Origin: Ostreococcus lucimarinus
Taxonomy: Eukaryota
Length of the DNA stretch: 64,000 nucleotides
Assembly: GCA_000092065.1 (NCBI GenBank)
Contig: CP000583.1
Reading direction: 5' to 3' (one strand)
How positions within the stretch are numbered: position 1 is the first letter of the stretch; every line of letters begins with the position of its first letter. The notes under the pieces are model-generated. The model had not been told where the DNA came from and did no database searches. It was given only the letters and a program-made list of their open reading frames with translations. The translations under genes were made by a program, and so were the position numbers. Shown here piece after piece: positions 45 to 59,070 of the stretch.

Positions 45-3000
45 CTAGGTCACGTCTACATCAGAGTCTCTACGAGCTTTTTTCCATGCCGGAGACGGAT
101 CGACGGCGTTCAATAATTCTGAATGCGCCGGTTGCTGTGACGAACGACGCTGCGACATTCGCGGAAGTTCGTTGACGTAAACGTCCAAATCTTCTTCGAT
201 TTCATCTTCTTCACGGTTGTCGTCTTCGACATAAGGATTCGGAATACCTTTTTCCATGCACTCCACCGCTTGTTTGATGACGGCGAGAACTTCAGCGTTA
301 TTCTTTTTGATCGCAGTTCTCTCGTTCGCTTTATCGACGCCGCTTTCGATGAACTTTTTCATATCATCAGCAGTGCGCGGTCTTACTTTTTGGAGTAACT
401 GCAAGAGATTCGGAGGGAATGCGACATCGAGGCTGACTGGTTTGCCCGTCTTCAGCTCTCGCGCATGAGCCATGCGCTTACGCCAAGAGGTCAAAGCTGC
501 GAACACAGCATTGCGCATGTCTTGCTCCTTCTGGTTGTCCTCGAGCGCATTCGGATTGAGCATGTCAGCCAGGAAGCCATCGACATCGGATTGCGTACCG
601 GGTTGCGTACTAGGTTGCGTGCCAATAATGACAGTTGTAGTGACCGGAACTTTCTTTCCAGCAGATGCTCGCCTCTTGGTAAACGCCATAGAAAATCTTT
701 CTCTACCCTGTTGAATCGGTTCGCAGCGGTGTCGTTCGTAGTGAATGGTTGTCACAGTCGTCGCAAATGGTCCAGCTCCTTCACTACGAACGGTTTTCTC
801 GCTCAAAAAGCCACGCAAAACCATCGCGCGCGCGATTCTTTCCGATTCGGACTTGTCCAAACCTTTGCCTGACCCATAACCAGGTAAGCGGTTGTATTGC
901 TTCTGAGTCACCGTCTTTGCGCTTGAACCTCTGAATACGTCTACGAGGAGTCCGATACCAATACCCTCTGGAGTAGATTTCACGATGCTGATAATTCCTC
1001 TAGCGTACTCGGTGATGTCTGTTTGCTCGAATTTGACCCCATTGGCTATAGCGTGACACGAGTCACACATGCCTCGACAATGCGAGCGCTCGAACCGTTC
1101 ATCGAAGTGAGCCATCAATTGTGTCCGCCGACAATCCGCCAAATTTTCACAATAAGAGACCATAGTGTTGAGGGACTCTAGATTGTTTTGAAGGACCGCC
1201 GGTTGGGCACGCTCTCTGCGAGCACTATCGATCAACATACTCCTCGCTTTCGACGCGTCGCCCCAAGAGTAAAAGAGAATACACAAACCATGATCACCGT
1301 CGCGTCCAGCACGACCGCTCTCTTGATGATATGCCTCCAGAGATTTAGGCATGCTATGATGAAACACGAATCTAACGTTTGGTTTGTTGATACCCATCCC
1401 AAACGCCACCGTAGCGCAAATAATGTTCACTTCATCTCTTTGCCACATTTCCTGATGCTTCTTCCGCACGTTGTCTGCCAAGCCTGCGTGATAAGGCACG
1501 GCCCGTAGTCGTTTAGGGAATCTCTCGCGGTCTCCCACTGATCGATCAATCTTGTTTAATTCCGTTGCAATTTTTTCGCAGTCGGCTTGACTGAAGCAAT
1601 AAATGATACCGCATTGCACACGATTGTTTCTCATCAGTTTGCGACTCACGATAAGATTTTTTATCTCGTTGACCATTTGCTTACCTTTAAGTTTCGGATG
1701 AACTTCGTACGTCAAATTGGTTCGATTGAATGTATCGAAAAATCGCAAGCACTTTGGTAAGTTTAACTGGCGAACTATGTCATCTTGAACTCTTCGAGTT
1801 GCCGTCGCCGTCAGGCACATGATTGGCGTCGTCGGGAATAAATGTTTCAAACCTCTCAGTTCGGTGTAATCCTTTCTAAAGTCATGTCCCCAAGCACTGA
1901 TACAGTGCGCTTCGTCCAACACAAAGCGATTCAGCATACCTCTCTCATATAATCTCTGCAGAGCAGTCTTTAATTTGCCACTTCGCACTACTTTTTCTGG
2001 AGTGACATATAAGAGTCGAAGCTCGGGCGTAGGTGAGCGAAGATCGTCGTATATCGTATTATCACTGTCCTTTGCAGCAGAAAGCACTGTTGCTGGAATA
2101 CCCATTTCACTCAAGTGGTGCAGCTGATCCTGTATCAATGAAATAAGCGGTGAGATGACCACCGTGATACCGGGCTTGACGACAGCCGGGAGCTGGTAGC
2201 ACAACGATTTGCCTCCGCCAGTGGGCATCAACACGAGGCAGTCTCTCGCGGCCATGGTGGCATTCACCGCGAGCAGTTGTAAACTTCGAAACGACTTCGC
2301 GTTAAACGTGTTGCGAAGAGTCTGTTCGCAGAGTTTGCTCCACTGGAAGTTGGTGTGACCCCAGTCTTTGGCGTCTCCGCCTTTCATCTGACAGTCATTC
2401 ACCACAACATTCGACCCGACATTTACGGCACCAATCCCGTTCATGGGAATCACGACGTCATCACCGATCGGTAAATCGTCGTTCCATCCTGGGAAATCGT
2501 TGGGATCGTCACCCGCGGGAGGTGCCGTCCACGCGCTCGTCGACGGCGCTCCGTACTGGGGCGGCACTTGATGCCGCGGCGCCTCAATCATTCTCGACCC
2601 GTCTACCGGCATCGAATGACTCATCATCGGCGCTGAAGGATGAAAGCTATTTCGACTTCCATCTTCACACACTCGAATGATCGTTTCCGCTTCCATTCTT
2701 TGATAAACCAGAACCTTTCTGTCACTATTCTTCAACGCCACGTCGTCGTCTTCCAATTGGAAAACAATGTTTGCTAACACAGGTCGCAGTTGCTCGATGT
2801 GTGATGCGCGGTGCGAACAAGCATGTAAAGGCACCCCATGCTCGCATCTCCAATCCGCTCCTGAACCATTCAACGGCGGCGCCTGGCATGAGATAGACGG
2901 ACCCGATGGCGGCGCGCGAGACTGTTCCAAAACGCGCGCGCGTGGCGCGCTCATCGGTGCCGGCGTCATCGCTTGCCGCGCGGGAATCGGCGCCATCTGC

Positions 3001-3512
3001 AAGCTCACCGTTACGCTAGAATTCACCGCGTTCAACGAACCCGAGCGTTTGTGCATCATCACCTGTTCCACGTCAATATCCGCCATGATATCGTCGTCGT
3101 CGTCGTCAAACATCAACTCGTCCGCCGTCGAGTTTGCCACGGAAATCGGCGCCGATTTCTCCCCCACATTCCCCTTCCCCGTCTCAACGTTCGCTCGAGC
3201 TGGAACAAGTACACGTTCTCGAATCGTCTCGTTCCCGGATTTCCCATCTCGAACGCTCGATCGACGCGTTCCCGGATCTGGAAGGTTCAAACGCGCGTAC
3301 GGCGTTTTCAAAAAATCAATCACGCTCTGCAATCCTCGATCGTTCAGCGTCGCCGGCGCGAACGCCCCGTCGTCCACGCGCATCCACACTCGCGCATCGC
3401 TCGACGTCGTGTCGTTCAGAGGCGCGGCGAGCGGGTTTTGTCCATCGAGCGAGTACGCGAATCCCTCGCGCGTCGTCGACGCCTCGGCCGTTCGACCGGC
3501 GTCGACGCGCAT
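45..3512 (-). CDS. ATP-dependent DNA helicase, RecQ family (BLM/Sgs1-like), with about 400 aa N-terminal extension containing an acidic D-run
   Basis: ORF 1155 aa. Walker A 'LMPTGGGKSLCYQLPAV', DEAH box 'VLDEAHCISAWGHDFR', helicase-C 'YHAGL', 'ATVAFGMGINKPNVRFVFHH'. RecQ-C zinc cluster 'CRR..C..CDSC'. C-terminal HRDC-like tail. Confidence 0.9.
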   Translation of the reverse strand: MRVDAGRTAEASTTREGFAYSLDGQNPLAAPLNDTTSSDARVWMRVDDGAFAPATLNDRGLQSVIDFLKTPYARLNLPDPGTRRSSVRDGKSGNETIRERVLVPARANVETGKGNVGEKSAPISVANSTADELMFDDDDDDIMADIDVEQVMMHKRSGSLNAVNSSVTVSLQMAPIPARQAMTPAPMSAPRARVLEQSRAPPSGPSISCQAPPLNGSGADWRCEHGVPLHACSHRASHIEQLRPVLANIVFQLEDDDVALKNSDRKVLVYQRMEAETIIRVCEDGSRNSFHPSAPMMSHSMPVDGSRMIEAPRHQVPPQYGAPSTSAWTAPPAGDDPNDFPGWNDDLPIGDDVVIPMNGIGAVNVGSNVVVNDCQMKGGDAKDWGHTNFQWSKLCEQTLRNTFNAKSFRSLQLLAVNATMAARDCLVLMPTGGGKSLCYQLPAVVKPGITVVISPLISLIQDQLHHLSEMGIPATVLSAAKDSDNTIYDDLRSPTPELRLLYVTPEKVVRSGKLKTALQRLYERGMLNRFVLDEAHCISAWGHDFRKDYTELRGLKHLFPTTPIMCLTATATRRVQDDIVRQLNLPKCLRFFDTFNRTNLTYEVHPKLKGKQMVNEIKNLIVSRKLMRNNRVQCGIIYCFSQADCEKIATELNKIDRSVGDRERFPKRLRAVPYHAGLADNVRKKHQEMWQRDEVNIICATVAFGMGINKPNVRFVFHHSMPKSLEAYHQESGRAGRDGDHGLCILFYSWGDASKARSMLIDSARRERAQPAVLQNNLESLNTMVSYCENLADCRRTQLMAHFDERFERSHCRGMCDSCHAIANGVKFEQTDITEYARGIISIVKSTPEGIGIGLLVDVFRGSSAKTVTQKQYNRLPGYGSGKGLDKSESERIARAMVLRGFLSEKTVRSEGAGPFATTVTTIHYERHRCEPIQQGRERFSMAFTKRRASAGKKVPVTTTVIIGTQPSTQPGTQSDVDGFLADMLNPNALEDNQKEQDMRNAVFAALTSWRKRMAHARELKTGKPVSLDVAFPPNLLQLLQKVRPRTADDMKKFIESGVDKANERTAIKKNNAEVLAVIKQAVECMEKGIPNPYVEDDNREEDEIEEDLDVYVNELPRMSQRRSSQQPAHSELLNAVDPSPAWKKARRDSDVDVT

Positions 3513-9315: not shown

Positions 9316-10443
9316 ATGAGGGTTTTCGCGCGGCGCCGGCCGACGGTGAAACTCGCGCCCCGCGCCCCCGTTTCGCCGGGCGCGTTCGAGCGATGGACGG
9401 CGACGCGCGGTGCCCCGCAGGCGCGGACGCGCGCGGCGCCGCGCGTCATGACGCTCGAGGACGCGATCGCGAGGTACGAAGCGACGAAAGCCGCGGCGAT
9501 CGCGACGGCGCGGGACGCCGCCGTCAGGGTGCGCGAGGAGGCGACGCGCGCGCAGCGGGTCGTGATGAACGCGCCGGCGCCCGCGCTGGCGGCGCGCTTC
9601 GCGCGAGCGGATGGGTTCGTCGATCGCGGCGCGTATCCGGTGTTCGTCGAACGCATCGCCGTCGGGTCGGTGATCTTCTCCCAGAGCTACGCCAGAGACG
9701 CGTGGTTGCACGTGAAGAACAATCACCTGCTCGTGGCGCTGTTCATGGCGCACCCGAAGCACCCGTTTTCGCGAACGGAGCGCGCGGTTTGTTTGTTTTG
9801 CTCGCTCATCATGGGATTCGGGTTGACGTGCGCGTTTGGTTTGATCGCGGACGAACCGGATAAAACGGTGGTGAGCGTGATCGTGGGAGGGTTCATTCAG
9901 GGGGTGTACGACGCGTTGTTGAGAATGTTCGCCGAATGCATCTGCATTCAGTCGTGCCCGCGTTGCGTGGTCAACTGTTTCGAGACGTGCGGGCGGATCG
10001 GGATGGTGCTGCAGTTCCTGCTCGGAATCTTGGTGCTCTGTATCGGTTTCTTAGCGTTCGTCACGTCGGAGAGCCTGAGAGCGCTGGGAGGGGTGACTTG
10101 GCGTTTCGCGATGTCGAAAGCGTCGTCGTGGGTCGTGGCGTCGATGATCTTTGTGCTCCTGGGACATCACCTAGCGCGAAGAAATCAGATGCGGCCGGCG
10201 GCGTCGAGGCACACATTCAGCGAAAAAGAGGCGCACGAGCGCTGGAACACGCCTCAAGAGCCGTGGTGCTGCTCGTGCTGTCTTCCGTCTCGCGCTCCGT
10301 CTTACTTTTGGAATTATTACATCGGCGAAGACGTCTCGTTTGAAGACTTGCCCATGAAACCGCCAAAGTACGCCGTCAAAAATTTTGGTTGCGTGTGCGG
10401 CCAAGACGAAGACGACGAGGACGGCGTCCCCGCACAGCTTTAG
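9316..10443 (+). CDS. hypothetical multi-pass membrane protein with Cys-rich segments
   Basis: Hydrophobic helices ('LVALFMAHP', 'CLFCSLIMGFGLTCAFGLI', 'VLQFLLGILVLCIGFLAFV', 'WVVASMIFVLLG'), 'CICIQSCPRCVVNCFETC', 'CCSCC'. Start may be M at about 9448. Confidence 0.4.
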   Translation: MRVFARRRPTVKLAPRAPVSPGAFERWTATRGAPQARTRAAPRVMTLEDAIARYEATKAAAIATARDAAVRVREEATRAQRVVMNAPAPALAARFARADGFVDRGAYPVFVERIAVGSVIFSQSYARDAWLHVKNNHLLVALFMAHPKHPFSRTERAVCLFCSLIMGFGLTCAFGLIADEPDKTVVSVIVGGFIQGVYDALLRMFAECICIQSCPRCVVNCFETCGRIGMVLQFLLGILVLCIGFLAFVTSESLRALGGVTWRFAMSKASSWVVASMIFVLLGHHLARRNQMRPAASRHTFSEKEAHERWNTPQEPWCCSCCLPSRAPSYFWNYYIGEDVSFEDLPMKPPKYAVKNFGCVCGQDEDDEDGVPAQL

Positions 10444-10570: not shown

Positions 10571-11626
10571 ATGGCGTCCATCGACGTCGGCGTCGCCGCG
10601 TTCTCGTGTCGTCCGTCCGCGCGCGCGCGCGAGCGACGCGCGTGCGAACCGTCGTCGTCGACATCGCGTCCGCGCGCGCGCGCCCTCGTCAGCCAACACC
10701 GACGCGCGTCGCTCGTACGCACGCGCGCCGCCGATGGGGCGTCCGCGCTGACATACGTCGCCGACAGCGTCATTGGTGGTGCGCTAGTGTTCGCGCTCGC
10801 GAGGTCAGGGTCGAGGTACACGTCGAGGAGAGATTCGGGCTGGTTGGCGACGGAGGACGACGACGAGGCGGAGGTCGACGACGCGGGCATCCGATGGACG
10901 GTCGCGAGCGTGGTCGGGTGCGTACCGCTGTTAGCTTGGCTCGCGTGGGTGCTACCTGTGATCTCGGTCGGGGAATGGGACGACGATCAACGTCCGGGGA
11001 CGATAGCAAAGCCGGAGGCGTTTGCGCTCGCGGCGGCGTACCTACTCGCGTACGCGGCGCACGGATTCAACTTATCCGACGGTTTCACGTGGGCCATAAC
11101 GGTGTTGTGTGCGGGACATGTGCAGCTAGAAAGGACAAACGCACTTCTAGCCCCGAGCTCGGACGATGCTCTCGAGATCGCCTCGCCGCCGAAGCGCACT
11201 GAGAAGGAAAACGACATTGTTCGTGCGTTGCTGAATCCCCGACCGGCGACGACTATGGAGGAGTGGACCCGCGACGAAACCACTGGCTCGATCACTCAAG
11301 CTCCGCAAAATTCAGTCGAAGGCGCGGTCAAACTCGGACGATCACTCGGCAAAGCCGGGGTCGTTGCGAGACAACTCAGCGAAAGCATAGCCGAAGGAAA
11401 GTTGCAAGCGGAAATCGAACAAGAGACGCTCCGTACGGAAGAAGCGGTGCGGCGCCAGAACGAGTTACTTTCAGGAGAGCTCGAAGAGTGGGACGGCCGA
11501 TTCCGATTACGAACGATGACGCGAACAGAGCTATTAGAGCTCGCGCGTCAACGGGGAATGACCAGGTATTCAAAATTGAACAAACCGGAGCTCGTCGAGC
11601 GCTTAGAAGCCGAGATCTATGAATAG
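10571..11626 (+). CDS. Rho-N (Rho termination factor N-terminal/SAP-like) domain protein, membrane-associated, RHON1-like, probably plastid-targeted
   Basis: C-terminus 'RTMTRTELLELARQRGMTRYSKLNKPELVERLEAEI' = Rho_N motif. Central TM segments. Ala/Arg/Ser-rich N-terminus. Confidence 0.6.
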   Translation: MASIDVGVAAFSCRPSARARERRACEPSSSTSRPRARALVSQHRRASLVRTRAADGASALTYVADSVIGGALVFALARSGSRYTSRRDSGWLATEDDDEAEVDDAGIRWTVASVVGCVPLLAWLAWVLPVISVGEWDDDQRPGTIAKPEAFALAAAYLLAYAAHGFNLSDGFTWAITVLCAGHVQLERTNALLAPSSDDALEIASPPKRTEKENDIVRALLNPRPATTMEEWTRDETTGSITQAPQNSVEGAVKLGRSLGKAGVVARQLSESIAEGKLQAEIEQETLRTEEAVRRQNELLSGELEEWDGRFRLRTMTRTELLELARQRGMTRYSKLNKPELVERLEAEIYE

Positions 11627-28922: not shown

Positions 28923-29972
28923 ATGCTGGCGTGTAACGCATGCTGGTGTGACCTAGACTCTGGATCGGCGTACATCGCGGCGTGCGATCACGTCTTCTGT
29001 GCGTGCGAAAGACGCGTGTGCTCTCGACCTCGACCGTTTAGGTTGCGGTTTTATTCGAATACTTCCCTCGCTCGAAGCGCGCGCATGGCGCGAGTTCGTA
29101 GAATCTGACGACAGTTGATCGACACAGGTGAAAAGGATGTGCACCTCGGCCTCGAGCAGCGACAGTGCGCGGTGTGTGCGACGAAGATGGAAGAGCGAAC
29201 TATTCGAGTCTCGGAAGTTCAACCCGACCTCGGCGAGCTTCAACGCAAGCTGACTGGCCTCAACCCGAACGACATGCTCACCGCCGTTGCGTACGGATTA
29301 AAATTTTGGGACGATCAACTCGAGCTTCGATACAGAACTGAGCTTGAAAAGTCGTTCACGAGCGCGCAAAGAAGCGCTGAGATGTACAAGAGGAAACTTC
29401 AGGTGTGTCGTCGCCTCTTGAAACGCCACATGCCATGCAAACTAACCTGATCGCACCTCCAGGACGTGCACAACGCTTATAAGAGAGCCAAGACGAAACA
29501 AGATGAACTTGCCGCTCAGTTAAAGGAACGAGAGAATGATATTGAAGAGTTACAGCATCGCTACGAAGAGAAGAGCAGAGAGAAGCGTCGTTTGGAAGAT
29601 TCAGCTGGAAGAGGCAGACCGAGCCTGGGACCACAGTTTCAGGCACGCACGGCACCTATGATGCCAGAGACTGCGGGTCGAATCGATACTCGAGGTCGTA
29701 CCGAACCTGATGGTTGGCTGCAACAACAACGGGTCTCGTCTAGCGAACTCCGCAGTCATCGTAGCTCCGAGCAACTTCACAGGAATTTACCGCAGCGTCG
29801 CACCAGTCTCACGCGCAGTTTCGACAGCGGATTGACACCTCCATCAAATTCACGCGACTCACACGAGCGCACATTTCGAGCTCTTTCTCCGTACACGCGT
29901 CAGGCAGTCGAACCACCTTCTCGGCCCGGACGTGATTCCGTCGGACTGTTCTCGAAACGACGCATATTCTGA
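28923..29972 (+). CDS. HEI10: RING-type E3 ligase HEI10/CCNB1IP1 (meiotic class-I crossover factor), 3 exons: 28923..29015, 29127..29402, 29463..29972
   Basis: Exon 1 'MLACNACWCDLDSGSAYIAACDHVFCACE' versus human 'MLLCNYRKCRIKLSGYAWVTACSHIFCDQH'. Exon 2 'QCAVCATKMEERTIRVSEV...AVAYGLKFWDDQLELRYRTE' (second CxxC of the RING, then coiled coil). Exon 3 coiled coil and Ser-rich tail ending 'LFSKRRIF' (human '...FKVKRI'). Introns 111 and 60 nt with GTGTG donors. Confidence 0.75.
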
Positions 29973-55103: not shown

Positions 55104-58100
55104 TCATTTCCAAGTGTTTGGAAATTGTTGCGTTCGCGATGATGATATTCTCGTGAATCGGTGCTGCGTTAAGTCTCTGTTCGAATCGAAACAATCAAGC
55201 GTCGAGTTTCTTCGCCCACGCTCGGGAGGCGCGGGCATTCGGTAAGACTCGAGCATTTGATTGAATTCCTCAAGTGACGGTTCAGGTTGCTGCCGATGCT
55301 TCTCCAGAATCATGTTTGCGCTCGTCGAGGGTCCGTCGCTCGTCCGGGTCGGTTGCCAGAGTCGACCACCGCCGACAGCGCCAACATTGACAGGGGGCGC
55401 TCTTCGTGGTGACGCCGCTGGCGGTGATCGTAAGAGTGATCGCGGCGCCGACGTGGGAGACGTCTTGAAGTCCACGATTGGAGACGGCGTATCGATATTG
55501 CGCCGATGCAAAGATTGGTAATAATGCGGAGTCGCGGTGTTTGTCGGCGAATCTAAAGACAAAGATTCGAGCTCCCATTCGTCGAGTCGTGGTCGCTTCG
55601 AAATGGGCGAGTAAAACTCTGTGATTGGACGTTCCGTGAAGACTTGCCTTCGTTCTTGCGCAGCTCCGCCGCGGGGCGAATACGGCGGTGGTACATCCTT
55701 CGCCGGCTCTTCGGCACCGAAGACATCGAGTGGGCATCCAAGGTATCCATCGCGTTGCAAGTACGCCTTAGTATTCGAAGACAGATTACCAATGCGTTGG
55801 AGTTCATCGCAAACGAATTCATCCGCCAATAGAGCGCATGCGGAGATTGGATTGAGCAAAGGAAACATATCACACAACTCCATTTCTTCAATCGTTCGGC
55901 TCTCTGGCATTGGCGCAGAAAATTCTGAGAAACGACCATCTTGTGGCTGCAGAATCTCATGTAGCATCGACGCGGTTTCATCTTCGAGACTGTACCTGAG
56001 ATCGATGGAAAAATGCATGTGCGCGGCGTCTGAATGGATTCTTCGATCAAGCGTTTGCGCAATGTTTAAAAAGTCCAAATCACCCTCAAAGACCATCGTT
56101 CCTGACACAAACGAGTGCGCCATAGCAACCATCAAATCTTCCACCAACGAAAAAAGTTCAATTTGTGTCGGTAACCCTTCAACAAAATATTCTGGCACGA
56201 TCAATATCACTGCGTGAACTTGCTTGCCGACGGTGAAGCATGCGTCAACGTCGATCCCAAACTCTCGCAAAATCACGTCGCACCCGTCGTCGAGTAAGTT
56301 TCGCTCAACTTGACCAAATAGTTGCTCTCGTACCTTGATAATCTGTCTAGCGACGTTGAGCACGACGACGTGCCTCGGAACGCCATCGAATTGTACAGGA
56401 GGCGATACATTGGGATCTTCGTCGCGCACGACGCTTGCAGCATGTTGATTATTCTCCACGTACGGTGAATGACGCAACGCCGATGACGCAGGCTCTGGAT
56501 CTTCACTAGGTATAGAGACACCCCGTTTCATGGCGAGCACTCTCACAAAGCGATTTGCAGCGTGGCGCGAAGAACCAAGCAGATGAAGATCTTGAAGCGC
56601 ATTCGGCGACGGAGCGTAATAAACGCACGTCGAAAATAGCTCCAATGGAAATGCCTCATGAGCAATATGAGCCTCGAGAGCGATTAAAACTTGTACATTG
56701 GCCGTCGCGAGCGTAACCGCGCGAGCGAAATCCTCAACATCGTCTTCGTGTAGATTTTTAAACTCTTGCTTACCATCAAACTGAACTGCTTTTGTACCAA
56801 GCTTACTGATAAATCGCACGATGGAGAGTATACCCATCGCGTCGGGAAAGATAATGAGCATTTTCGATTGAGTCACTATGAGATCTGCGATGTACGCTCT
56901 GATCATTCTCAACTTGGGATGATCGTCAAACTCGCCGCGCTCCACGGCAACGTCGTTGTTTTCGACGAGGCTCTTGATGTCTGATAAATCTTGTTCATCC
57001 TTAGCGTAACTCCGCATCAAAATGTGCGCTTGATGAATTCCATACACATGAATTAAATTCGCCGCACTTTGACAGCACAGCAAGTTCTTCAAATGTCGAT
57101 TGATTGACGACGACTCATTCGCAAAGTGTTTCATTGCGTGCGCGAGCTCCGTAGATTCGCCGACTTGAAATCGGGGAATAGCTCGCTGAATATCCAGAGG
57201 TAAAATTTGCGATATGTAACCATAACGTTCCGCGAGCACTTTGATCACATATGTGTGTTCTGGATCAAGGTCAAGCTCGACGAAATCGATCAAGCACGCA
57301 TCCTTGTGTTTCTCAATCTTCGAAAGAGACAGCGATTCACTCAGCGTCGGTGGCTTTGGAATGGCTTCAGGCGCTGACTTTGGCGGTTCTTTCGTCGTTC
57401 GTGGTTCATCGTTCTTATCCATCATGTCGTCCCAAGTCCAATCGAGATCATCATTATCCATCTCGGCTTCGCGAAATAAAGTTGCCGCCGCGGTGTGCTC
57501 TTCTTCTTGAAATCGCGCCAACGTATCGAGGGCGTTTGGGATAGCAACTTTCCATTCGGATAACGCGGGCGCGCGGTCTTTTACTGCTTGCACACTCGCA
57601 ATCACGTCTCGCATTGCGCGATCCGTACGAACATTCGCATCTTCTTCTTCTTCTTCATCGATCTTCGGTACAATCATTGGTTTGGTGACGAATCGGTCGT
57701 CGACGTTTAGAAGCTTCTTTGTCATTTGCGCTTTGGCTTTGGACGAGAAATCATTCGACACCGCGAGGGTGTGCTCTTCCACAGGCGTCGTTAAAGTCTT
57801 CAACTTTGAGTCCAGAGCAATATCCATCGAATCTGGATCCACGTTCTCCATGAACCTTGGCGCGGTGTCTTCACAAATCAACGGAGCGATCTTCGTCGGC
57901 ACGGCTTGGAAAGGGTCTTTCGTCGACGGCTCGGGGATCCTTCCTTGAAACAGGAGATTCTTTAAGTACTCCTTGCATGAACTATCAATCTTTATCTCAT
58001 TTTCCCACGGCAGCACTTTGATCTTTTTCGCCATCGAGAGCAAGAACGTGATCGGAGACGCGAGAAGAGAAGGCTCGTCCATCGCAAACGAAGTCTCGAG

Positions 58101-58766
58101 TGGGCGCGGAAACAAACTCATGAAATCCTTCAACTTACCAACCTTCGTCGTCGACTCAAACTCTTTCGAACCTTCGCTCTCTCGCTCAACGTCGTATCTC
58201 TTCTGCAAGTCATTCTCAACGCAATCCAGCGCCTCCAGGGCGTCTTCGTTCAATCGAAACAAACAGCTCTCCGAATTTGTCGAGAAACTCGCCTCGCGAA
58301 TCGCTCTTCGCAGCGCTCTTCGCGTCTCGTCTTCATCGACGATCACGGGCGTCTCCATCCTCTCCATCCACCGCGAATCCATCGCTACTACCAATGACTT
58401 ATCGATGCCACCGCGCTTCTTCCCATGATCGACCGATATCTTCACCGGACGCGAAGCCACCGCGCCGAACGCCATCGCTCTCTCGTCTCTCGTCTCGCGA
58501 CCCGTCTCCACCCAATCCATCGTCTCCACGCACTTCTCCACCGGCACGGCGGCGATGATGTCCATCGCCGTCAGCGACGCGCACCGCACTTTCGTCCTCC
58601 CCCCCCCCGTGGCGACGTCATCGAGCGTCACCGACCCACCGCTCGTCTCCGACGTCGCCTCGTTCTCGTCCTCCCCCGCCGTCGTCGCGTCGCCTTCGAT
58701 CGCCCTCGCCTTCGCCTCCCACTTCCCACCCCCGTCCTCGCTCGGTTTCGCCCCGATGTGCGTCAT
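55104..58766 (-). CDS. large uncharacterised protein (about 1220 aa) with acidic Gly/Thr-rich N-terminus; possible degenerate helicase-C-like segment
   Basis: Continuous ORF with no Walker A/B. 'KMLIIFPDAMGILSIVRFISKLGTKAVQFDGK' is reminiscent of the SF2 helicase-C motif IV-V context. Track ORF's first 100 codons are microsatellite read-through; M102 (58766) or M87 (58811) is a likelier start. Confidence 0.45.
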   Translation of the reverse strand: MTHIGAKPSEDGGGKWEAKARAIEGDATTAGEDENEATSETSGGSVTLDDVATGGGRTKVRCASLTAMDIIAAVPVEKCVETMDWVETGRETRDERAMAFGAVASRPVKISVDHGKKRGGIDKSLVVAMDSRWMERMETPVIVDEDETRRALRRAIREASFSTNSESCLFRLNEDALEALDCVENDLQKRYDVERESEGSKEFESTTKVGKLKDFMSLFPRPLETSFAMDEPSLLASPITFLLSMAKKIKVLPWENEIKIDSSCKEYLKNLLFQGRIPEPSTKDPFQAVPTKIAPLICEDTAPRFMENVDPDSMDIALDSKLKTLTTPVEEHTLAVSNDFSSKAKAQMTKKLLNVDDRFVTKPMIVPKIDEEEEEDANVRTDRAMRDVIASVQAVKDRAPALSEWKVAIPNALDTLARFQEEEHTAAATLFREAEMDNDDLDWTWDDMMDKNDEPRTTKEPPKSAPEAIPKPPTLSESLSLSKIEKHKDACLIDFVELDLDPEHTYVIKVLAERYGYISQILPLDIQRAIPRFQVGESTELAHAMKHFANESSSINRHLKNLLCCQSAANLIHVYGIHQAHILMRSYAKDEQDLSDIKSLVENNDVAVERGEFDDHPKLRMIRAYIADLIVTQSKMLIIFPDAMGILSIVRFISKLGTKAVQFDGKQEFKNLHEDDVEDFARAVTLATANVQVLIALEAHIAHEAFPLELFSTCVYYAPSPNALQDLHLLGSSRHAANRFVRVLAMKRGVSIPSEDPEPASSALRHSPYVENNQHAASVVRDEDPNVSPPVQFDGVPRHVVVLNVARQIIKVREQLFGQVERNLLDDGCDVILREFGIDVDACFTVGKQVHAVILIVPEYFVEGLPTQIELFSLVEDLMVAMAHSFVSGTMVFEGDLDFLNIAQTLDRRIHSDAAHMHFSIDLRYSLEDETASMLHEILQPQDGRFSEFSAPMPESRTIEEMELCDMFPLLNPISACALLADEFVCDELQRIGNLSSNTKAYLQRDGYLGCPLDVFGAEEPAKDVPPPYSPRGGAAQERRQVFTERPITEFYSPISKRPRLDEWELESLSLDSPTNTATPHYYQSLHRRNIDTPSPIVDFKTSPTSAPRSLLRSPPAASPRRAPPVNVGAVGGGRLWQPTRTSDGPSTSANMILEKHRQQPEPSLEEFNQMLESYRMPAPPERGRRNSTLDCFDSNRDLTQHRFTRISSSRTQQFPNTWK

Positions 58767-58889
58767 CGCGTCTCGTTTCAAATCATCCCTTCGCGTCGAC
58801 GCGTACCGCATCCTCGTCCGTCGCGCCGTCGTCGCGGTGTGGCCGTCCAGCCGTCGCCCGTCCGTCCGTCTCGTCCCGTCTCGGGACGC

Positions 58890-59062
58890 GAATCGCCGGA
58901 TCGGCGAATCGCCGGATCGCGCGATCGGCGGATCGGCGGATCGGCGATCGCGCGATCGATCGTCCGTCGATCGCGCGATCGCGTCGATCGATCGATCGTC
59001 GATCGACGTCCGTCGACGGACGTCGATCGTCGATCGTCCCGCCCGGCGCGTCGATCGTCCCG
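58890..59062. repeat. GATCG/GGATCG-based microsatellite cluster in a divergent promoter region
   Basis: 'gaatcgccggatcggcgaatcgccggatcgcgcgatcggcggatcggcggatcggcgatcgcgcgatcgatcg...'. Confidence 0.9.
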
Positions 59063-59070
59063 CCCGCACA

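Follow-up and report, generated by a model that had tools for sequence, protein, structure and literature searches.

On the minus strand of a 64,000-nucleotide stretch of Ostreococcus lucimarinus DNA (GenBank assembly GCA_000092065.1, contig CP000583.1; the whole stretch is called the window below) lies a long open reading frame (ORF) that probably encodes the O. lucimarinus orthologue of SHOC1/ZIP2 (MZIP2), an XPF-family pseudo-enzyme of the ZMM meiotic crossover pathway. An earlier reading made from the letters alone, here the sequence-only reading, had described it as longer than any other ORF of the window, which was borne out. The first ATG, at 58811, gives a protein of 1235 amino acids with the same coordinates as in that reading. 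The mechanical ORF is longer (55104..59069, minus strand, 1321 codons with a GTG start). Its first 86 codons are a low-complexity translation of the 8-bp CGCGATCG tandem repeat, and it is this repeat that spuriously extends the frame to the GTG at 59069. The gene, the regions of its product and the adjoining intergenic region are listed in Table 1.

The form starting at Met16 (55107-58766, 1220 amino acids) is identical to XP_001416917.1 / ABO95210.1 / UniProt A4RU90 of O. lucimarinus CCE9901, which carries the labels "predicted protein" and "uncharacterized protein" in GenBank and UniProt. The public gene model XP_001416917.1 thus begins 15 codons downstream of the ATG at 58811. Prasinophyte orthologues begin with MRY..R, one of them with a 13-residue extension ahead of it, and the N-terminus of full-length plant SHOC1 mostly reads MR(T/L)R(F/Y). 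For these reasons the ATG at 58811 is favoured over the annotated one at 58766, and the annotated start is probably 45 nt too short.

Table 1. Features of the SHOC1/ZIP2 locus (window coordinates)
Feature	Residues	Coordinates	Strand	Remarks
Whole coding sequence of the probable SHOC1/ZIP2 orthologue	1-1235	55104..58811	-	1235 amino acids plus stop codon 55104-55106
N-terminal region	1-504	57300..58811	-	Patchy conservation; probable ZIP4/TEX11-type partner-binding region
Degenerate Hef/FANCM-type helicase lobe	505-763	56523..57299	-	
Acidic, Pro/Ser-rich linker	764-810	56382..56522	-	Poorly conserved; pLDDT <50 at model residues 260-306
ERCC4 (XPF nuclease)-like domain without catalytic motif	811-955	55947..56381	-	
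(HhH)2-like helical domain	970-1032	55716..55904	-	Model helices, common motif, XPF Foldseek alignment
Pro/Ser/Arg-rich C-terminal tail	1033-1235	55107..55715	-	Composition, conservation, low pLDDT
Divergent intergenic region, SHOC1 ATG (58811, -) to probable IF-2 ATG (59071, +; MTSSASAMF...)		58812..59070	.	

Conventional searches returned little for the window protein. Pfam gave nothing at E<=1, neither the single sequence nor a 6-sequence profile brought up anything but noise among PDB sequences, and a word-indexed homologue search found just five clusters. Bona fide plant SHOC1 proteins have no Pfam match either, so the silence of Pfam is a property of the SHOC1 family and no argument against membership. 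In an exhaustive hmmsearch, a prasinophyte core profile covering residues 140-1075, run against 1.84 billion representative proteins, yielded 20 matches, all of them members of the prasinophyte family or land-plant proteins, with no XPF, MUS81 or FANCM protein among them. It added two full-length lineages (P0051 and P0052) and a more distant relative of 1393 amino acids (P0057). The land-plant matches are long proteins from Ceratopteris (E 1.3e-7), Riccia (3.6e-7), Calypogeia (1.2e-5), Marchantia and Vanilla, together with Tasmannia lanceolata XP_077239741.1 (E 2.5e-5), whose RefSeq name is "shortage in chiasmata 1". Pairwise identities to the window protein were 92-93% (same cluster), 49-50%, 45%, 40%, 38% and 21%.

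In a profile-profile comparison of a 7-sequence prasinophyte alignment with a 6-sequence plant SHOC1 alignment, hhalign paired window residues 509-997 with Tasmannia SHOC1 678-1230 over 472 columns (99.2% probability, E 3.2e-19), and the comparison with the single Arabidopsis SHOC1 sequence reached 92.5% and E 4.9e-7 over 383 columns. The reciprocal search, conducted with a plant-only SHOC1 hidden Markov model (HMM) against the window's full set of 322 stop-to-stop ORFs with Z at proteome size, matched this ORF alone, in two domains (E 9.1e-19); the RecQ helicase of the same window was not matched. The matching core has motifs in common with the plant proteins in each of its parts: YG(I/F)(H/Q).AH.Y, (D/S)HP(K/S)L and FP...F....Y in the helicase lobe, along with a short strand of hydrophobic residues that reads KMLIIF in the alga and KIL(I/L/V)(I/V)A in plants; (I/V)V.N, a D at the position of the XPF "GD" and (I/V)FEG...F in the ERCC4-like fold; and, within the first HhH, FP.(L/I/V)NP(L/I)(S/T)A. 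The Arabidopsis SHOC1 gene was reportedly defined genetically by Macaisne et al. in 2008. The window protein is not restricted to one lineage, contrary to one alternative of the sequence-only reading, which had itself proposed remote homology and phylogenetic distribution as checks and had named a clear profile match to a known family as the outcome that would refute it; such a match was obtained. The Arabidopsis sequence (F4KG50) was taken from Table 1 of PMC9957857.

The prasinophyte core profile also touched two metagenomic proteins, P0061 and P0084 (1494-1588 amino acids). These distant, Ala/Gly/Arg-rich relatives match only its ERCC4-like and HhH part (VAVLNASR.., VVPEY, VVFEGD, FPLLNPISA) and lack the DHPKL helicase motif; in another lineage of green algae they may stand for a SHOC1 that has no helicase lobe.

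Structure prediction was the third check proposed. AlphaFold2 (AF2) on 1200 residues with a five-sequence alignment gave no confident fold, with a pLDDT (predicted local distance difference test) of 28.9. On residues 505-1062 with an 11-sequence alga-plus-plant alignment the pLDDT was 78.5, and values below 50 were confined to the linker of 47 residues and the final 30 positions. In Foldseek against the PDB, the best matches of this model were human XPF from cryo-electron microscopy structures of XPF-ERCC1 (9pcp_Q, 5.5e-11; 9qed_A, 1.4e-10; about 600 columns), followed by the Pyrococcus furiosus Hef helicase domain (1wp9, 2.9e-9), the FANCM translocase (9el5, 7.5e-8) and the RIG-I/MDA5/LGP2 group. 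Lower down came Aeropyrum pernix XPF (2bgw, 5.5e-5), yeast Zip2:Spo16 (6bzf, about 6e-5) and Mus81-Eme1. A mixed-profile PDB sequence search gave a sole match, again Hef 1wp9 (E 0.011), over the helical insert and the DHPK(L/M) preceding RecA2. The core, residues ~505-1032, has XPF/Hef architecture and is specifically homologous to plant SHOC1.

Within this core, the helicase lobe consists of a Hef/FANCM-type helical insert (~517-624) and a RecA2-like alpha/beta domain (~633-761) with DHPKL and KMLIIFPD. This agrees with the sequence-only reading, which had seen a helicase-C core without its RecA-1 partner. As in plant and mammalian SHOC1, the helicase-fold domain lies N-terminal to the ERCC4-like domain. 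We read its motif V/VI region as degenerate, with FPLELFSTCVYYAPS ... GSSRHA where GLD...FYEP...QRxGR would be expected. The linker is of variable length and much longer in plants. Beyond it follow two domains that the earlier reading had missed, the ERCC4 nuclease fold, very probably dead, with strands VVVLN, DVILR, (DVD)ACFTV, VHAVILIV and GTMVFEG, and the (HhH)2 domain. The latter comprises four to five helices at model positions 470-527 (pLDDT ~70-87), which the full-length XPF and Zip2 alignments cover. Its motif FP.(L/I/V)N(P/A)(I/L)(S/T/V)(A/L), here FPLLNPISACALL, aligns from prasinophytes to Arabidopsis. Owing to a 31-residue insert, the second HhH hairpin is less certain.

The flanks of the core evolve fast and are probably disordered. 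Their composition had been described as acidic and Thr/Gly-rich at the N-terminus and Pro/Ser-rich at the C-terminus, which is accurate: the first 90 residues are rich in Ala, Gly, Thr and Asp, the last 225 in Pro, Ser and Arg. Residues 1-504 contain short invariant motifs, among them CVENDL and LKNL, together with others kept in most members (MVVPKI, WKVPFPN, LSESLSLSK). The C-terminal tail carries SPxVD..TSPT..PRSL, MLESYRMP and HRF.RI...P..W.

Catalytic motifs were not found. A scan of the 1235 residues detected no Walker A (GxxxxGK[ST]; strict or loose pattern), no CxxC, no ERK and no Q..GR, and no tandem repeat lies inside the coding sequence; in this the claims of no recognisable catalytic motifs, no metal-binding clusters and no known repeats all held. 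The sole match to a DExD/H pattern, an isolated DEQD (residue 605), lies within the helical insert and is not a credible DExH. GD dipeptides occur only twice, at residue 40 and, as part of FEGD, at residue 910, and the acidic residues D854, D856 and E874 do not vary within the ERCC4-like domain. The reference site in human XPF (PDB 6sxa_F 684-769) comprises D687, D715 and E725-R726-K727. Compared by hhalign with human XPF and the P. furiosus Hef nuclease, the ERCC4-like block gave a non-significant alignment (E 0.12) that sets D856 opposite D715, I871-V872 opposite E725-R726 and FEGD opposite IEFD, a register which, resting on this alignment and the fold match, is only indicative. Plant SHOC1 has LWY or VVY at the position aligned with the XPF ERK. 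Since the ERK tripeptide is missing and hydrophobic residues occupy the aligned position, the nuclease site is very probably dead. Without Walker A and the ERK triad, the protein should neither hydrolyse ATP via a canonical SF2 (superfamily 2) site nor cut DNA. The suggestion of a pseudo-helicase scaffold in the sequence-only reading was essentially right, then, and its alternative of a lineage-specific protein was not.

What such a protein does is known from yeast, Arabidopsis and mouse. There, Zip2/SHOC1 uses its ERCC4-like and HhH2 module to pair with the ERCC1-like Spo16/PTD/SPO16, and it binds branched DNA, including displacement loops (D-loops) and Holliday junctions, but does not cut it. 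Its N-terminal region, which is poorly conserved and carries motifs, brings in the TPR protein Zip4/TEX11. In this way Zip2/SHOC1 makes joint molecules more resistant to anti-crossover helicases and favours the formation of class I crossovers (PMC6411835, PMC5859969, PMC5962103, PMC6155065). Every structural element required by this model is present in the algal protein, while its interactions and meiotic role would follow by analogy. The motif-studded N-terminal half matches, as far as the analogy goes, the description of the Zip4-binding region of Zip2, and residues 1-504 probably bind a ZIP4/TEX11-type partner, a role inferred from yeast Zip2 (PMC6411835). In the proposed mechanism, this probably disordered half would recruit the TPR scaffold ZIP4/TEX11, and SHOC1 together with ZIP4/TEX11 would protect joint molecules from anti-crossover helicases and so lead to class I crossovers.

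The assignment itself is already known, and the protein is an ordinary member of its family. In Supplementary file 2 of Thangavel et al. 2023, which lists homologues of 27 Arabidopsis meiotic genes across Viridiplantae, the 23rd gene column (SHOC1) of the O. lucimarinus row contains XP_001416917.1, the window gene; the same column holds OUS43815.1 for O. tauri and "ND" for both Micromonas species (PMC9957857). The O. lucimarinus row further includes homologues of ZIP4 (XP_001418982.1), HEI10, MER3, MSH5, MLH1 and MLH3 (PMC9957857). Our work is an independent confirmation and not a discovery. The gain lies in domain-level structural evidence, specificity controls and a probable correction of the start codon, which put a specific, domain-supported assignment in place of the "predicted/uncharacterized protein" label. 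With it, SHOC1/ZIP2, which is missing from a commonly used meiosis toolkit gene list (PMC11603280), joins the meiotic toolkit of a picoalga in which a sexual cycle has never been seen.

Several points weigh against the SHOC1/ZIP2 reading. Upstream of the core, no RecA1 lobe carrying a P-loop or DExH is recognisable, and the N-terminal half has no confident model. When the N-terminal (1-508) and C-terminal (1000-1235) parts were compared with the plant SHOC1 flanks, hhalign gave no signal. The register of catalytic residues is as tentative as stated above, and human SHOC1 570-1111 is reported to have ATPase activity (PMC5962103); given that report, a complete lack of ATPase activity in the algal protein is something we infer. 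PTD and MSH4 are "ND" for O. lucimarinus (PMC9957857). Sex has never been directly observed in Ostreococcus, where recombination signatures and a candidate mating-type locus nevertheless exist (PMC8557840). With all this taken into account, we still hold orthology to SHOC1/ZIP2 to be likely.

If sex is rare or cryptic, the SHOC1 homologue might have been repurposed as an XPF/FANCM-family pseudo-enzyme scaffold in vegetative (mitotic) repair or replication-fork processing. We regard this as distinctly unlikely: the exhaustive profile search led to SHOC1 and to no FANCM, XPF or MUS81, the active DEAH ATPase of FANCM is absent here, and ZIP4, HEI10, MER3 and MSH5 are encoded in the genome, with a HEI10 homologue in the same window. 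A helicase, translocase or nuclease that is active with motifs diverged beyond recognition is very improbable. The invariant D854, D856 and E874 and the ATPase report for human SHOC1 would be in its favour, but 1235 residues without a P-loop, ERK, Q..GR or recognisable RecA1 speak against it, as does the strand equivalent to the XPF V-E-R-K, which in the E 0.12 alignment is hydrophobic (AVILIV) and corresponds to LWY/VVY in plants. Zip2 and mammalian SHOC1 are, moreover, reported to be without nuclease activity (PMC6155065, PMC5962103).

That the protein is prasinophyte-specific and resembles SHOC1 and XPF by chance or convergence would fit the missing Pfam and PDB sequence matches and the close lineages, only seven and all Mamiellales-like. 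Against 472 collinear columns, the concordant reciprocal HMM search and independent fold matches for two consecutive domains ordered as in XPF, this explanation has hardly any probability left and is considered refuted. An artefactual fusion of smaller genes split by unrecognised introns, which the sequence-only reading had named as a possible pitfall, or a pseudogene would have only the length and the missing annotation to recommend it and is refuted, with a probability close to nil, by conserved blocks along the whole length, by full-length orthologues of 1183-1234 amino acids in seven lineages (38-50% identity) and by metagenomic copies numbering at least in the hundreds. Because all relatives are collinear over the full length and free of stops, the gene is taken as real and single; judged from its sequence, the ORF is one constrained protein-coding gene, neither fusion nor pseudogene. 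Two metagenomic copies differ from the window gene by 9-10 nt, with 3-4 synonymous changes and 5 non-synonymous codons, too few for pN/pS.

Returning to SHOC1/ZIP2, the question of its partner arises. A tblastn search of the window with AtPTD found none. That Ostreococcus runs a trimmed ZMM pathway is a speculative idea and rather unlikely. If it were true, SHOC1 would have to pair with itself, as archaeal XPF/Hef does, or with a highly diverged and so far unrecognised partner of the ERCC1 type, since PTD/SPO16 and MSH4 were not detected in this alga. The prasinophyte-specific motifs CVENDL, LKNL, MLESYRMP and HRF.RI..P..W in the N- and C-terminal tails would then be lineage-specific docking sites, and the minimal alga would serve as a natural test of how many ZZS/ZMM parts, and which, crossover formation can do without.

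The intergenic region between SHOC1 and IF-2 contains a tandem array at 58857-59006, with ~14 copies of the 8-bp CGCGATCG at 58887-58998 and super-periods of 16 and 24 bp; the array might be a bidirectional promoter element. Other neighbours in the window include PsbP, an ABC1 kinase, TilS, GyrB, Dus and seipin, a gene content indicative of a compact photosynthetic eukaryote. About 25 kb from SHOC1, at 28932-29972 on the plus strand, tblastn with Arabidopsis HEI10 (E 3e-9) found a homologue of this ZMM RING E3 ligase with an N-terminal RING (CNACW...C.H..C). The match is broken by two stretches with in-frame stops, probably short introns. Judged from accession order, this is probably XP_001416621.1, the HEI10 entry in PMC9957857.

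A RecQ-family helicase of 1155 amino acids is encoded at 45-3512 on the minus strand, with DEAD, Helicase_C, RecQ_Zn_bind and RQC domains. The RecQ family includes BLM/Sgs1, anti-crossover helicases proposed as being antagonised by ZMM proteins. Two adjacent plus-strand ORFs, 9316-10443 and 10571-11626 (375 and 351 amino acids, weakly Rho_N-like at the C-terminus), fall into one 90%-identity protein cluster and are therefore taken as near-identical tandem paralogues; the 592-amino-acid NCBI model XP_001416615.1 of the same cluster may merge both.

The G+C content of the window is ~55.8% and very uneven (47-65% per 2 kb), and at least one of its genes has introns. For the O. lucimarinus genome a G+C content of 60% is given (PMC3491373, Table 1). 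Low G+C and introns resemble the outlier region of Mamiellales, and a position on chromosome 2, within its low-GC candidate mating-type region, was considered and dropped: by their order, the protein indices (EukProt P001258-P001560) would place the window on the third sequence record rather than on chromosome 2.

Set beside known systems, the algal protein differs from FANCM and archaeal Hef, whose active RecA1 carries Walker A and DEAH, where the alga has neither a Walker A nor a credible DExH. With the XPF/ERCC4/RAD1 endonuclease it has the same order of modules, a degenerate helicase-like module, an ERCC4 fold and (HhH)2. XPF, however, retains GDx(n)ERKx3D, whereas the algal protein lacks ERK, and the family profile of the latter retrieves no XPF proteins. 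Saccharomyces cerevisiae Zip2 (Zip2:Spo16, 6BZF/6BZG), for which the solved construct covers residues 499-704 only, has no detectable sequence similarity and 8-12% identity in structural alignments. Compared with land-plant SHOC1, the algal protein is shorter (1235 versus ~1500-1770 amino acids), has a helicase-ERCC4 linker of ~47 instead of >100 residues and ~31 extra residues between the two HhH hairpins, and cannot be aligned in its N-terminal 500 and C-terminal 200 residues. In the core, by contrast, it is homologous to and collinear with Arabidopsis SHOC1 (AT5G52290, F4KG50) and its land-plant orthologues, and shares with them the lack of both the ERK triad and a Pfam match.

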